Part shown: piece by piece, positions 18,370-63,796 of the stretch
Layout: every line of letters starts with the position of its first letter
Position numbering within the stretch: the stretch's first letter is position 1
Source: a virus
Taxonomy: Duplodnaviria; Caudoviricetes
Virus record (IMG/VR): IMGVR_UViG_3300024259_001623
Direction: 5' to 3' (one strand)
Length of the DNA stretch: 64,000 nt
Made by a program: the position numbers and the translations under genes
Notes under the pieces: generated by a model
The model's database searches: none
Seen by the model: only the letters and a program-made list of their open reading frames with translations
What the model was told of the DNA's origin: nothing

Positions 18370-18540
18370 TCAGGGAGATTCGGTTTGCTCAATTTCGTTC
18401 TGACAAGCCAGGCAATGGCCTTGCTTGTCGATACAGTCAACGCAAACTTCAGCGTGACAGCGTTGGCATTGATACAGCCAAGCTTGCTGTTCTTCTGTGC
18501 CGCATTGATGACAACGCGACTCGTAAGGTTCATTGTTCAT
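18370..18540 (-). CDS. 56-aa Cys-rich (multiple CxxC) protein, not in the ORF track
   Basis: MNNEPYESRCHQCG...CQRC...CVDC...CLAC...ESP*; the stop lies inside the TCCCTGA motif. Confidence 0.75.
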   Translation of the reverse strand: MNNEPYESRCHQCGTEEQQAWLYQCQRCHAEVCVDCIDKQGHCLACQNEIEQTESP

Positions 18541-19262
18541 TAGGATTTCCCTTGTTCTGCTCTTTTCTTTTGTGCTGCTACCGTCAGGGGATGCTTGCGA
18601 ATGGGGAACCGAGCCTTTTGCCGCTCTGCATACTCTGCCAGATTCCTCTTCATTCTGGCGACGGCTTGTGTTGGCGTCAGTCCCATGATCGAGGCGGTGC
18701 GGACCATACCATTGATCAGTCCGTTATGCTCTATCTTGCTGCCCCAGAGCCGCTCTATTTCTTGTCGCCATTCGCCTTTTGTCATTGTCTGATCCCTTTC
18801 TGCCCTTAACAATTGCGACTATTTGTTCAGGGATTGCTTGAGTTCATCCAAAAACCTTAACGCTTTGAGTTTCAGAATAAAAACATTTTCCTCAAAATTC
18901 CAATAGACGATAATGATAGCGATGGTTGCCAAGAAGTCCCACATGATTATATCCTTTCTGCCTTTAACAATTGCAGAGGTTTATTCAGGGAAAGGGTAAA
19001 CGTCCATTGCCCAAGGGAAGGCTTGGTGTAGGCCAGTCAGTGAGCTTTGGCAGAGCGTATGCCGTTCAGCTTGCCCATAGACCCTTATGGATTCTTTTAC
19101 CGTCCAGACCATCGTGGGCTTGTGCTTATTGCCCATCGTATCCAACAGAGTGAATTGCTGTCCGTTGTCTAGTGTGCAGAGTCCAACTTTAGCCATTGTC
19201 TTACCCTTTCTGCCTTCTTTAATTATTGGCTTTATTTCAGGGGGCGAAAAATAAATGCAATA

Positions 19263-19310
19263 AAAAAAGATGTAGCCCCTAGCTTTTGCTAGTCGATTGG
19301 GCTACATCTT
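19263..19310 (-). terminator. Hairpin terminator
   Basis: AAGATGTAGCCC...GGGCTACATCTT stem followed by a T run on the minus strand. Confidence 0.7.
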
Positions 19311-19515
19311 CGGGAGGTCAGGGGCGACTTCTCGCCTCTGTGACTATGGTTCTAGTCGTCCAGTCCGTCCTCTTCGCTGTCCGTGCAGAGATGGAAGGGG
19401 CAAGTTTCGCAGTCGTCGTGGTCGCAGACAGTCTCGTGTGATTCGGGCATTTTCGATTCCTTCTGTAAGAGGTTTGTTTCGCTACCCTTAACAATTGACC
19501 GTTACGCTTCAGGGA

Positions 19516-19854
19516 TCAGGACTTGATCGTCGTATGCCAGCGATTCCGGCAGGATGAGCATTTGCAACTGGCATCGCCAGTCCGGGTATTCAGGGTATAG
19601 AGTACCCGGGTGGACTTGCAAGCGGGGCAGGGGACTTCCGGAAGGGGGTCCGGGACGCTGTTGGTATCCTTCCAGGTCCCCCGGTCGCCGGTGTCGTGGG
19701 CGTTCAGGATTGCATCAGCTTCGGCAAGTTCTTCGCATTTTGTGCAAGTTTTTTCGTTGTGGTCGGCGGTAGAGGCCAGGACTTCGTTCCGGTGGGCTTC
19801 CAAGGCGTCGGCGGTCATGGTTTCAAGGGCGTTCATAATTCGGGAAGTGTTCAT
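19516..19854 (-). CDS. Zn-ribbon hypothetical protein
   Basis: CTKC; CPAC...CSSC. Confidence 0.7.
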   Translation of the reverse strand: MNTSRIMNALETMTADALEAHRNEVLASTADHNEKTCTKCEELAEADAILNAHDTGDRGTWKDTNSVPDPLPEVPCPACKSTRVLYTLNTRTGDASCKCSSCRNRWHTTIKS

Positions 19855-20049
19855 TTTGTAGCTCCTTTGTTGCCCTTAACAATTGACCGTTATTTATCAG
19901 GGAGATAGTAGGGAAAGAGAGAAAAGGCGATTCCATATCCTTTTTACAGGCCAATACGGGACAATCCAACTCTCTTTCGCCAGAGCCGATAGTTGACTCT
20001 CGGGAACATAAACCCTTCTCTACTGTCTCTTATGATTGATCGTTATTTA

Positions 20050-20160
20050 TCAGGGAATAAAGAATAGCAGGGCTACGACAACAGCAGCGCCAGCAACAGC
20101 AAAAGACGCAAAGCCTATAACCATGATAAGCTCGATCAACGTGAAAGCTGTTTTCTTCAT
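20050..20160 (-). CDS. 36-aa type IV prepilin-like peptide
   Basis: MKKTAFTLIELIMVIGFASFAVAGAAVVVALLFFIP*: basic leader, A/FTLIEL class III signal motif and a hydrophobic helix. Confidence 0.8.
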   Translation of the reverse strand: MKKTAFTLIELIMVIGFASFAVAGAAVVVALLFFIP

Positions 20161-60297: not shown

Positions 60298-60372
60298 GGG
60301 CTACCGCCCTACTCTCGGACTTAAACCGACAATCGTATGTCTACGTGCGTCTACCAATTCCGCCACCCGCCT
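60298..60372 (-). pseudogene. Degenerate Leu-like tRNA remnant
   Basis: GGTGGCGGAATTGGTAGACGC D arm, a 4-nt-loop hairpin in place of the anticodon arm, a T-like arm, and no acceptor pairing. Confidence 0.55.
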
Positions 60373-60378
60373 ATATAA

Positions 60379-60451
60379 CACGCCTGACAGGATTCGAACC
60401 TGTAACATTCTGCTTAGAAGGCAGATGCTCTATCCATTGAGCTACAGACGC
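60379..60451 (-). tRNA. tRNA-Arg (TCT)
   Basis: Stem TCTGC/GCAGA, loop CTTCTAA. Confidence 0.93.
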
Positions 60452-61545
60452 AAATGTCTATTGAATATCGCTCGGGAAAAGATAACTAGCGATACCTATA
60501 ACAACAGCAGCTATAAACATCCCAATATCACCAGTTACGAAAAAACATGACAGAAATACTATTGAAGCTATTAAGCAAGGTAATTTTAACATTATTCTAC
60601 CTTCTTCAATAACTTAATAAAGTTTTTGGTGGTAGGGTTCATCCGGGCAGGCTCAATATCAGCCAAGTCAGAAAGAAGTTCCCCAATCTCTACCTTCAAT
60701 AAAACAAGAGGAACACTAGGCAACTCAGGGTTCTCATTAAGCTGCACAAGATCAATCGTAGTTGTTTCGACAGCACCAGTCCCATGAGTCTTCTCAAGAG
60801 TAATCTTCATCTTTTATTCCTTATCTAATTGACGTTCAACTTCAACTATGCGCTCAACCAAAACTTTATTGTCCTGCTCTAATTCTTCGATTGAGTAACT
60901 TTGCATTAGATTTACAACATGAGCGAGTATTAATGCAATACAAATAAGAGTGATAGCTAAATATCTCATCTTTTTAATCCTTAAATTGAGGAATGTCCAA
61001 ATACATTCCATCAAGACTCTCTTTTACAACTACAAACAGTGATCGAGTCATATTACTCGCAATAATCGTCTTGCCTTCAGGGACTTCCTGATGATACCAA
61101 TTCACTCGAAATCGACCTAACCATACTCGTTTATCAATCCCATTAGTCTGTAAGTCTTTAACTAAAAAGAAGTTCTCACAATCCTGCTGCTCGTCTGCTG
61201 CCCATTTCTCTACAAATTCTTTCATCAAATCTTTTTTCTGGGCGTCAACAACAACACTAACTTTCGAGTTCTTTTGGCTCGGTTTTATCTGGGGCATTAT
61301 CTATTTCCTTATTTTTAATAAATGAGTCTTCATTCATCTTGTTAAACAAACGATTACGTAAATTACGCTCATTAGCCTGCTGCTGTAATCCTGCACACAA
61401 CTCAGTAAACCTCTCGTCAGAAAGTACAACAGCAGAAACCAATAAACTCTCAACTTCATTCTTCAATAACATATTGTCTCCAAAATGAAAACCACTTATC
61501 AGAAAATATAAGATTTACACACTTTATTGCAAAACCGGAAATGAG

Positions 61546-61582
61546 TTATATAATATATATACTCTGTATATATATTATATAA
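61546..61582. repeat. Perfect 17-bp AT-rich inverted repeat
   Basis: TTATATAATATATATAC-TCT-GTATATATATTATATAA. Confidence 0.9.
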
Positions 61583-63796
61583 AAACTCATGTTCCTTCTT
61601 TAAAATTATGTAAAATTATTATTTTAGGTCAAACATGACGCTCTGAGGAACAAAAACCTCATACTTCTTCGTCTCTTTAGCATTGAATGAAACAAGGCAA
61701 ATCCACCAAGGAGTAGGAACGTAACGATGAGTATAAACGACCCGAGGTTTGTCAGATGAAAGATCATCCTTGATAATCTTGCATTCTTTGACGCTGTAAG
61801 GGACTACAATTCTTTTACCGTCTAAGTCATGTAAAATTAAATTAATGCCCTTAGCGTCCGTTTCTGAGCTTACAATGGCATTTTCTGCGTCAGTACCCTC
61901 AAGGACTTCGGTGGTATACGTATTTTGAACAAACTCATCGCTTGTCATGTCTTGACTGGCAGAATGACAGCCAATGGTGATCCCAGTAACAACACAAGTA
62001 AAAAATACCAAAACTACAATAACAGCGATGGTATCTCCAAGATCTTTGTAATGATTATTATCCTTGTAATAAGAAACCAACGGCAGAAAAATCGACAGAC
62101 TCAGTAAAATCCAAAATATCATCGTTTTGTCCTTTCCCTAATTTGGAAAACAGTGTTATGACTTACAACAAGTTGATACTCAACGAGAGTACGAACTCTA
62201 TAACTGTATGGAGATATCCACCAAGGAACATCTACATACGATTTATCAATATTTAATACAGGTTTTGCTTCTTTCACATCTGTATATACAATCTCAAAAT
62301 TATCGTCATTCATTGTAAATTCTTTACCAGAAACGAATAACGATAATTCAGAATCCTCTTTGGTGATTGAAATAACTGGATTTCCAGCATCTCTAACAGG
62401 GATAATTAGTGATTCCCGCTCATGAGTTTCTTGATTTTGATCAGTAACAGCAGCCATATGTAATATAGCAACTATATTAGTTATGCCTACAACTACTAAA
62501 AATAAACTCATCGCTATAGGAATAACTACTGGATGAAAACGACCTTTAGCCATAATACCTATAGTTATTAAAACAGCAGCTATAATCATTAATATCCAAA
62601 ATATCATCTTATTGCCCTTCTACAGGGATTGAATCTTTCCCTGTTATTTTTTTCTTCGCAATTAATAATTTTACCCGAAAATTCAGGGAGAAAATCCCCC
62701 CCTGTTTATCTCAACGCAGTATGAAAATCTTTTTTATCTAAAAATACTTTCATAGCTTTGTCATGATCCGCTTTCTTCATAAAGACTTTCATAAATACAG
62801 CATCGCCATGAATCCCAGCAGCGATGAAGTCTTTACGATATACTGTCACAGGGATAACAATGTCATTAGAAAACTTGGTTAAATGATGAGCCGCACCTTC
62901 CTCCGTACAATAAACATGAATGCCTTTCTCAATTACATTATAGGTGGAATCGTCCCTCAACGTTCGCTTCTCACCATTAGTCAATGCTTTTTCAATACGA
63001 TCAGATTTGATCCAACCAGGAGTATATTCTTTGCAGCGCCATCTATAAGGAGAACGTAATGATGCGGTTCCCCATCGCTTTTTGATCCATAAAGCCTTAA
63101 ACATAACAAGCTTACCACCATTCTCATCAAATAACTTGTTGATCCTAGCAGTAGCTTTATCATCAATGTATAAACACATAGTCTTCTTCCTTAATTTTCA
63201 AATCTATTATTTATTTTTCGCCCACCAATATTATCAATAAGATAATAGATTTATTTTTTATTCCCAAATATTCTACGCCAGAATCGTTTCCGACGTTTAG
63301 CGTTTACTTCAGCACAAAATACCAGGAAAGCTTTCAGGGACTTCTGAGCAGACGGTAATACAGCCAACTTTTGTACAGTTACTACAGGCATATCAATAAC
63401 CCTCACAGTAGCTCTATCCCAAGCAGGAGGATTAGATGGATCATAACTAATAGGAGGAAGCTCTACAGCAGGACGAGGCTGCTGAACACAAGAAAACATT
63501 GACTTATAAGGACCAGACTTATAAGGATCAGACTTGATAGAATTCTCTCTAATATAATCATCCATCTTTGGATCAATATAATTAATTTTATTAATATATT
63601 TTTCATTCATATAACTCTTATTATGAATGATGCTGTAAGTATCATAAATGTCATCCCGACCAGAATCATACCTGCAACATTTACCATAATCATGTTCTTT
63701 AACCATTGTATTAGTTCCTTATTTTATTATTAATAACTAAAATGAATTAAATTATTAATTGTTGGGGTAACGCCTCATTAAATAGAGATTAATTAA

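Follow-up and report, generated by a model that had tools for sequence, protein, structure and literature searches.

We analysed a 64,000-nt stretch of the IMG/VR virus record IMGVR_UViG_3300024259_001623 (Duplodnaviria; Caudoviricetes), hereafter the window, in which the heptamer TCCCTGA recurs on the coding strand over about 45 kb. The heptamer turned out to be the first block of a three-block module of about 34 nt and not a lone element. This module is very probably a promoter. A fuller account, in which it is a phage-specific two-box promoter with the RNA start position proposed below and with a reader encoded by the phage, appears to us rather probable.

A strand-locked three-block module

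The window, which is near-complete in many seawater metagenome runs, is part of a 434,625-bp contig. Between 18.3 and 64 kb, almost all open reading frames (ORFs) lie on the minus strand; gene calls were made with our own rough caller of ORFs and ribosome-binding sites (RBSs). The following parts of the window are referred to throughout:

18315–63340, minus strand: the whole motif-bearing block, with 64 copies of TCCCTGA and 56 complete three-block sites
18315–32500, minus strand: a dense array of mini-genes
802, 18178 and 58753, plus strand: the plus-strand copies of TCCCTGA

Exact TCCCTGA was found 67 times in the window, 64 times on the minus (coding) strand and three times on the plus strand, against an expectation from 100 dinucleotide shuffles of 7.0 ± 2.7 copies on both strands (maximum 18). 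An earlier sequence-only reading of the window had counted roughly 70 copies by eye and had proposed a strand-specific count against a Markov background. For the minus strand of 18301–64000, order-1 and order-2 Markov models gave expectations of 2.5 and 3.6 copies, respectively, versus 64 observed, and TCCCTGA was the top-ranking 7-mer of that strand, above every A-rich word. The bias extended to shorter forms (99 minus-strand and nine plus-strand copies of TCCCTG; 139 and 24 copies of CCCTG). The first minus-strand copy of TCCCTGA occupies 18370–18376 and the last 63334–63340, with none on that strand below 18.3 kb. In contig L094, which comes from another sample and is 99% identical to the window, only four copies of TCCCTG were present in the 9.7 kb beyond the window end. 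The strand-locked enrichment of TCCCTGA is real and very strong, and the sequence-only reading was right about the number of copies, their strand, their near absence from the first 18 kb and their span of 18370–63345.

To describe the surroundings of the heptamer, the 64 copies were aligned on it and numbered from its first base (position 0). Sequence on the upstream side carried no information. Downstream, the layout consisted of TCCCTGA at 0–6, an A-rich spacer, AAAT at 18–21, a −10-like hexamer of the type TGnTAA at about 22–27 and GGTAG at 29–33. Counts of the preferred base over the 64 copies were 43 for A19, 52 for A20, 43 for T21, 34 for G23, 38 for A26, 36 for A27, 36 for G30, 29 for T31 and 34 for A32. 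The heptamer is separated by 12 nt from the AAT block and by 15 nt from the TGnTAA hexamer, and the 11-nt spacer between the blocks is little conserved.

A weight matrix of positions 7–35 was scored at all CCCTG sites, with the 99th percentile of random positions as the cut-off. Complete sites, i.e., those above the cut-off, numbered 56 among the 139 minus-strand CCCTG sites and zero among the 24 on the plus strand, so that two blocks in a single orientation, as in a two-box promoter of the sigma-70 family, are present at 56 places on one strand and nowhere on the other. The complete sites comprised 42 TCCCTGA, seven CCCCTGA, four TCCCTGT and three other variants. Boxes 2 and 3 were at offset 0 relative to the heptamer in 34 of 39 scorable sites, and a promoter made of a single element, as proposed in the sequence-only reading, does not agree with this rigid register of the AAAT/TGnTAA and GGTAG blocks. 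GGTAG stayed at 29–33 whether the next ATG was at 47, 55, 57, 67, 70 or 78, and it thus belongs to the heptamer module and not to the RBS. The complete sites (position of the 5′ base of the heptamer) and the best-scoring module are as follows:

Minus strand, complete sites from 62689 to 32922: 62689, 52053, 49835, 47627, 43703, 43183, 41603, 40908, 40406, 39775, 38335, 36564, 36024, 34925, 34584, 34242, 33095, 32922
Minus strand, complete sites from 32390 to 25324: 32390, 32101, 31815, 30987, 30182, 29561, 29215, 28663, 28015, 27768, 27366, 27125, 26655, 26321, 25588, 25523, 25324
Minus strand, complete sites from 24558 to 18376: 24558, 24345, 24130, 23800, 23470, 23168, 22698, 21893, 21761, 21463, 21248, 20891, 20205, 20056, 19903, 19515, 19243, 18991, 18833, 18590, 18376
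18785–18833, minus strand: best-scoring module, with the heptamer at 18827–18833, an AAT/TTG block at about 18810–18814, the −10-like hexamer at about 18806–18811 and GGCAG at about 18800–18804; the proposed RNA start, at about 18799–18801, is followed by a Shine–Dalgarno (SD) sequence and an ATG at 18785, 48 nt downstream of position 0

Placement among genes and the proposed RNA start

Placement was assessed for 78 sites, namely the 56 complete sites and 22 heptamer-only copies. Of these, 38 begin close to where the upstream ORF or transfer RNA (tRNA) gene ends, from 32 nt before that point to 6 nt after it, and in seven the TGA of the heptamer is itself the stop codon of the upstream ORF. 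For 18 of the 56 complete sites, the next predicted start was found 46–51 nt from position 0, and this class carried an AAAGGA or AAAGGG SD at about 34–39. In a smaller class (five complete and two heptamer-only sites), the next start was at 32–35 nt, mostly with no SD. Two members of the latter class, in which the ATG at +32 opens a real ORF, are:

21216–21248, minus strand: module 21248, the same promoter as module 21761, with an ATG at +32 and no SD; candidate leaderless start
27334–27366, minus strand: module 27366, with an ATG at +32 and no SD; candidate leaderless start

These positions agree with two statements of the sequence-only reading, that the copies usually follow a stop codon and that they lie 25–45 nt before the next ATG, the latter once both distance clusters are measured from the end of the heptamer. 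Its statement that the motif marks nearly every transcription unit was too broad. A site was present 20–110 nt upstream of 37 of the 54 predicted features (69%) at 18.3–32.5 kb, 12 of 37 at 32.5–45.6 kb, five of 31 (16%) at 45.6–64 kb and none of 35 below 18.3 kb.

The position of the RNA start can be approached through the geometry of the module. If the promoter serves its own gene, the SD at 34–39 must be in the RNA; the start would therefore lie at or before about 34, and the −10-like part would end by about 27. Taken together, the SD position, the ATGs at +32 with no SD and the pyrimidine–purine step T31–A32 led us to place the start at about 32–35 in the numbering of the module. The heptamer would then occupy about −32 to −26, which removes the earlier objection that the spacing is too short for a −35 box. 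Given such a start, the main gene class would have a leader of 12–16 nt containing the SD only. Two other assignments were rejected. Taking TG at 22–23 as an extended −10 with TAAGGG (25–30) as the hexamer would move the start to about +37, and the SDs of the main class and the ATGs at +32 would fall outside the RNA. The heptamer as a lone −10-like element was discarded, since its composition is rich in G+C and an A/T-rich partner follows it in strict phase.

In the two-box promoter that we propose, TCCCTGA would be the upstream, −35-like box of a compact two-part promoter. The module would abut or overlap the end of the preceding gene and be followed by an SD and ATG (46–51), by a leaderless ATG (32–35) or by a tRNA or small RNA, and many of the mini-genes would be separate transcription units. 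The enzyme would most likely be the host core RNA polymerase, since a sigma factor is present and no polymerase gene was seen. Specificity for the box would come from a phage-encoded factor, for which the first candidate is the sigma-70-family protein encoded at 56480–57328. Jumbo phages with sigma factors and without a polymerase of their own are thought to redirect the host core polymerase (PMC7824862). TTGACA/TATAAT-type matches were not enriched relative to shuffles (26 vs. 33 ± 5.5, 61 vs. 67 ± 8.4 and 51 vs. 47 ± 6.6) in scans that covered 18–38 kb, 44–64 kb and sequence upstream of the window. Among the options offered by the sequence-only reading, a promoter for a phage polymerase or sigma factor is the best supported, although its premises of a single element and of too short a spacing were wrong.

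The sequence-only reading had also placed copies upstream of RNA genes, and this held for three sites: 45518 (tRNA-Pro), 31627 (tRNA-like) and 27768 (YrlA-like). The tRNA-like Rfam match at 31432–31573 begins 54 nt after 31627. The YrlA-like RNA (Rfam RF02553; 38.8 bits, E-value 2.5e-6, below the gathering score) begins 142 nt after 27768. Together with a stretch that carries three sites in about 400 nt, the RNA-associated regions are:

45407–45518, minus strand: tRNA-Pro site, with the heptamer at 45512–45518, a sigma-70-like pair CTGACT-17-TATAAT and tRNA-Pro (45407–45481) at +37
27513–27768, minus strand: YrlA-like Y RNA module, with the complete site 27768, a strongly folding leader (27630–27740, z-score −4.6) and the RNA at 27513–27626
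25200–25588, minus strand: three-site stretch (25588, 25523 and 25324), about 400 nt with no convincing ORF

The tRNA-Pro site is a hybrid (45487–45518), in which the heptamer overlaps CTGACT and a perfect TATAAT stands 17 nt further on, immediately in front of the tRNA; it is the sole coincidence of the motif with a good housekeeping-type promoter. The sites in the three-site stretch may drive unannotated small RNAs or micro-ORFs. Four minus-strand modules (26321, 27125, 23168 and 19515) have leaders of 67–78 nt built on a common pattern, GAAC(G)AAA(C)CCC(T)TT...AGGAG, that allows pairing of AAAAGG/AAGGG to CCTTTT/CCCTT.

A candidate sigma factor and related lineages

The candidate reader is encoded in an operon that is itself headed by a heptamer:

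58491–58542, minus strand: operon-head heptamer (58536–58542), whose TGA is the stop codon of the upstream ORF, 51 nt before an Rnl1-type RNA ligase gene
57328–58491, minus strand: RNA ligase (RNA_lig_T4_1), first gene of the conserved operon, with the sigma gene directly after it
56480–57328, minus strand: sigma-70-family protein P0001, 282 amino acids (aa), matching Sigma70_r2 (1.4e-14) and Sigma70_r4 (2.3e-8)
55957–56421, minus strand: AT-hook-like protein, 154 aa, with two repeats (KGKGRPP and KGRGRPKP) and no Pfam family

Regions 2 and 4 of P0001 align to RpoD, with region 2 closest to RpoD/SigA; no match to region 3 was found. The region 4.2 helix is divergent (SRPWAKHH). A candidate cognate sigma factor for a two-box promoter is therefore available in the form of the P0001 gene, and we tentatively regard P0001 as the reader of the upstream box, a possibility that we place somewhat below even. 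Because its gene stands in a motif-headed operon, P0001 would be autoregulated, feeding back on its own operon, if it reads the motif. When P0001 was searched against IMG/VR, the single protein gave no match and the alignment only distant sigma factors; in JGI metagenomes, the alignment recovered sigma factors of about 30% identity on high-GC contigs that lacked the motif.

The AT-hook-like protein may be an accessory DNA-binding factor, for which its repeats (in fuller form, KGKGRPPRG...NGDF and KGRGRPKPG...GHW) make it a candidate. It is 50–58% identical across all related lineages (orthologues at L001:3547–3918, L113:10001–10300 and L116:10001–10375) and always adjoins the Rnl1 or the sigma gene. 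A search of IMG/VR with its alignment gave one partial, unrelated match.

The relatives are contigs of other metagenomes, which were reached via the sigma protein and its downstream neighbour and have a common gene order. This order consists of RNA ligase 1, the sigma factor (in some contigs), the AT-hook-like protein and then a lineage-variable set, in which genes for RNA ligase 2, a PARP-like protein, a glycosyltransferase and a phosphoesterase can occur. Their ligases are 45–57% identical among themselves and to that of the window, and they thus represent distinct lineages and not strains. In all, four syntenic lineages with 45–57% identical Rnl1 proteins carry strand-locked motifs of the same architecture, as follows (those beside the window listed by contig):

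L001/L091/L092/L093: TCCCTG[A/T/C]-N11-AAAAT[T/C]GT.AAGGG, before both ligase genes; sigma gene present at the locus
L113/L118: TTCCCGA, 13 copies on the plus strand and zero on the minus strand, 2.3 expected; sigma gene absent between the Rnl1 and AT-hook-like genes
L116/L120: CCCAGAA-N12/13-(A)GTTGTAAAGAG(TAG), eight copies, 0.14 expected, with ATGs at 31–33, the ligase gene included; sigma gene present in L116 (9058–9885), none seen on the 3.7-kb contig L120

The site equivalent to 58536–58542 bears the lineage's own upstream word in each of these three further lineages (L001/L091/L092, L116 and L113). The ATG of Rnl1 is exactly at +32 in L001, L091 and L092, with no SD, and at +31 in L116; a ligase ATG at +32 behind the heptamer looks like the start of a leaderless messenger RNA. 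In the TTCCCGA lineage, 12 of 13 copies are followed by an nnYAAT hexamer (close to TATAAT) and AGAG, with ATGs at 45–49, or at 31 with no SD. An A/T-rich core (TTGTAA, TGTAAT or TGTTAA) and its distance to the start are common to the lineages, and the upstream word is lineage-specific. Since a host housekeeping sigma factor is not expected to switch its −35 word among related phages, the reader of the upstream box would be phage-encoded and would co-evolve with it. In L001 (3954–4094), and also in L091, L092 and L093, a leader of about 100 nt that forms two clear hairpins lies downstream of the RNA ligase 2 promoter; it is not called as a tRNA by ARAGORN.

For the sigma factors, we compared the residues at positions aligned with R584–I590 of Escherichia coli sigma-70, which read the −35 box. 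These are R-P-W-A-K-H-H in the window, W-A-R-(H/Q)-H in the other TCCCTG lineage and R-G-W-A-V-N-V in the CCCAGAA lineage, a pattern that would be expected if region 4 reads the box. Two wider searches returned nothing related. A pattern scan of IMG/VR with the extended consensus gave 18 single matches, about as many as a rough chance estimate, with no relative among them, and a megablast search of 12 kb of the window against a phage collection gave no match. In the literature, we found no paper that ties TCCCTGA to a bacterial or phage promoter.

Alternative explanations, module copies and known systems

Several observations weigh against the two-box promoter. Downstream blocks are lacking at 22 copies of TCCCTGA. 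About 12 heptamer-only copies are deep within ORFs on the coding strand, with about three expected by chance, and three others (30858, 24861 and 22421) are only 25–33 nt before an ATG, too close to be its promoter. The TGnTAA hexamer of the window matches TATAAT poorly, and the gap between box and hexamer (13–16 nt, depending on how the boxes are delimited) is below the 17 nt of housekeeping promoters; several alternative sigma factors use similar gaps. The start sites are inferred, and the −10 assignment comes from geometry. The covariation of sigma factor and box comes from two dialects only, and L113/L118, of which parts of the genomes were seen, have no sigma gene between the Rnl1 and AT-hook-like genes. 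Finally, UCCCU can pair with AGGGA-type SDs in about one third of the sites.

The ORF-internal copies mostly translate as x-Pro-Glu/Asp; they may reflect a codon effect, or be promoters inside genes or sites that have decayed. Examples are:

63340, 61083, 54046, 52586, 41814, 38431, 33206, 26544 and 22147, minus strand: ORF-internal, heptamer-only copies

Near-identical modules were also found in front of unrelated genes:

21715–21761, minus strand: module 21761, 97% identical over positions 7–45 to module 21463 (21417–21463)

The match between modules 21761 and 21463 begins precisely at the heptamer and stops at the ATG, with no relationship between the ORFs on either side. Module 21248 shares 79% identity with both, and the same value holds for modules 27125 and 26321 compared with one another. 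Because these near-identical modules are flanked by unrelated sequence, promoter-plus-RBS modules have been copied or converted between unrelated genes. The dense array in which they lie consists mostly of non-paralogous ORFs of 40–110 aa, mostly with no known family, and the roughly 100 ORFs of the block include only two weak paralogous pairs. G+C content is 0.41–0.47 in the promoter-saturated array (18000–36000) and 0.30–0.38 in the first 18 kb of the window, with a sharp jump at about 18 kb. Contig L094 showed no indels relative to the window, and short, low-coverage contigs of the same phage from four seawater runs contained no cassette variants or joints, their coverage being too thin to tell. 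The sequence-only reading had suggested that the motif makes each small gene an autonomous cassette; the near-identity from heptamer to ATG between unrelated genes favours part of this claim, but it fits repeated promoters better than a dedicated recombination site.

Among other readers of the box, a separate phage activator is a variant of the promoter model to be taken seriously, though unlikely. It would bind the heptamer at about −30 in the manner of MotA, with a host or phage sigma factor reading only the −10-like part, and could be the AT-hook-like protein or an ORFan. The heptamer would occupy about −32 to −26, like the T4 MotA box, which spans −35 to −26 and lies 12 ± 1 bp from the −10 (PMC2988021); its gap is 12 nt to the AAT block but 15 nt to the TGnTAA hexamer, which agrees best with the relatives. 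The TTCCCGA lineage, moreover, keeps its promoters and the AT-hook-like gene with no sigma gene at the locus, and that protein is present in all lineages, always in the same company. On the other hand, no MotA or AsiA family was found by Pfam among 99 proteins of the block (10 + 89; this window). The AT-hook-like gene is the most conserved of its module while the upstream word changes, which makes the protein a poor reader of lineage-specific dialects, whereas the region 4.2 helix of the sigma factor does vary with dialect. A promoter read by a phage-encoded RNA polymerase other than a sigma-directed one, carried in the virion or made early, strikes us as quite improbable. The window does hold a giant minus-strand ORF (3–4457, at least 1485 aa) that runs off its end and has no Pfam, PHROG or PDB sequence relative, and the giant polymerases in the virions of N4-like and crAss-like phages are just as difficult to identify. 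Nevertheless, no polymerase signature was found, one sigma gene was verified in the window, and two boxes around a non-conserved spacer are of the sigma type and not of the contiguous T7/N4 type. A contiguous block of about 18–23 bp or a hairpin, as read by single-subunit (T7/N4-type) enzymes, was not seen; the modules have a weakly conserved 11-nt spacer and no hairpin signal.

Explanations at the level of RNA or of DNA exchange account for less of the pattern. That UCCCUGA is a signal at which a sequence-specific endoribonuclease cuts long polycistronic transcripts and frees tRNAs, an option also raised in the sequence-only reading, seems very unlikely to us. The motif is strand-locked and located at gene boundaries and beside tRNAs, some heptamer-only copies stand just before an SD, and long transcripts are conceivable given few terminators and no canonical promoters in 45 kb. 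This reading nevertheless finds no support beyond position: it leaves unexplained the phased downstream blocks, which are independent of the RBS, the ATGs that three lineages have at +31 to +33 with no SD, the lineage-specific upstream words, and the fixed-distance TATAAT-like hexamers of the TTCCCGA lineage. It is most improbable that the heptamer acts as an anti-SD, with UCCCU pairing to an AGGGA-type SD of the next gene and coupling its translation to the upstream ORF. The heptamer abuts the upstream stop codon, and the CCC–SD zone had a mean pairing probability of 0.40 over 27 sites (at least 0.6 in 11), with a mean z-score of the minimum free energy of −0.8. Most SDs, however, are AAAGGA and do not pair fully, the stems are of 4–5 bp across loops of about 30 nt, and a C-rich word will by default pair with the one patch that is rich in G; blocks 2 and 3, the leaderless class and the sites ahead of tRNAs would remain unaccounted for. 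We give as little credence to recombination as the primary function, in which the repeats would be exchange sites that move gene cassettes, like attC or PeSL-type (promoter early stem-loop) sites. The modules that are near-identical from heptamer to ATG before unrelated ORFs (21761/21463/21248 and 27125/26321) and the compositionally odd, ORFan-rich array speak for it. Against it, the sites show neither inverted repeats nor stem-loops, the Pfam matches of the 99 scanned proteins include no family of integrases or recombinases, and no cassette variant was present in the four runs, where coverage is too thin to tell; the fixed ATG distance and the −10-like blocks indicate expression, and repeated promoters need general recombination only. 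A methylation or restriction target, considered because an N6/N4 methyltransferase is encoded at 15597–16829, was rejected because the motif keeps to the transcribed orientation and to a constant distance from starts. Other phage-type functions encoded in the window include an S8 protease, a second RNA ligase, a PARP-like protein, a glycosyltransferase, a GIY-YIG endonuclease and six tRNAs.

Two-box promoters specific to a phage have precedents. The middle promoters of Bacillus phage SPO1, which are read by gp28, consist of AGGAGA, 17–18 nt and TTTnTTT. As in SPO1-type sigma cascades, and as in 'group 2' jumbo phages with their sigma factors (PMC7824862), the window phage encodes a sigma-70-family protein with no visible polymerase and has its own proposed two-box promoter word before a temporal or functional gene class. 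It differs from SPO1-type cascades in its unrelated boxes, shorter gap, sigma factor with no recognisable region 3, dialects in relatives and extreme promoter density (about one per 320 bp over 14 kb), all known here from sequence. T4 middle promoters (PMC2988021, PMC6755090) would share with the modules a phage box near −30 that replaces the −35, about 12 bp from an A/T-rich block, and dozens of copies before prereplicative-type genes. Unlike in T4, no MotA or AsiA homologue was found, the −10-like block is not TAtaaT and a phage sigma factor is present, which T4 middle transcription does not need. The resemblance to PeSL cassettes of T4-type phages (PMC2839356, PMC4122927) lies in repeated early-type modules that flank small ORFans in a plastic region and are near-identical beside unrelated genes. 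The window modules abut the upstream stop codon and thus have no stem-loop or terminator half, and their promoter word is not of the host sigma-70 type. The composite of stem-loop terminator and early promoter that defines a PeSL was not found: terminator-like hairpins are few and not tied to the sites. Autoregulated promoters of extracytoplasmic function (ECF)-type sigma factors occur in bacteria. The candidate sigma factor resembles these in having regions 2 and 4 only and in its place, conserved in relatives, in an operon headed by its proposed target motif. In contrast to ECF-type factors, it most resembles RpoD/SigA in region 2, its regulon would be dozens of phage mini-genes and an anti-sigma factor was not identified. 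The concept has been described in T4 middle promoters, PeSLs and phage sigma cascades; the sequence code, the megaphage dialects and the promoter saturation of an ORFan array are new.

The transcription programmes of megaphages are almost unknown, as nearly all of these phages are uncultured. What emerges here is a promoter class defined by its sequence, a specific candidate for the sigma factor, and three dialects that occur naturally among related phages. The motif marks the part of the 434-kb genome that belongs to one expression class, and it helps annotators to locate the true starts of very small ORFan genes, as well as leaderless genes and small RNAs that have escaped annotation. The pairs of sigma factor and box could reveal how promoter specificity evolves in phages and could provide orthogonal sigma/promoter pairs. 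We also offer, as a speculation that we hold to be rather doubtful, that this uncultured marine megaphage lineage has a fast-evolving private promoter code. Its core would be shared, its upstream word (TCCCTGA, TTCCCGA or CCCAGAA) would co-evolve with region 4 of the sigma factor, perhaps with help from the AT-hook-like partner, and a promoter-plus-RBS module of about 50 nt would be copied between genes and make captured ORFans self-sufficient. If true, such a code would explain the compositionally foreign, promoter-saturated array of mini-genes.

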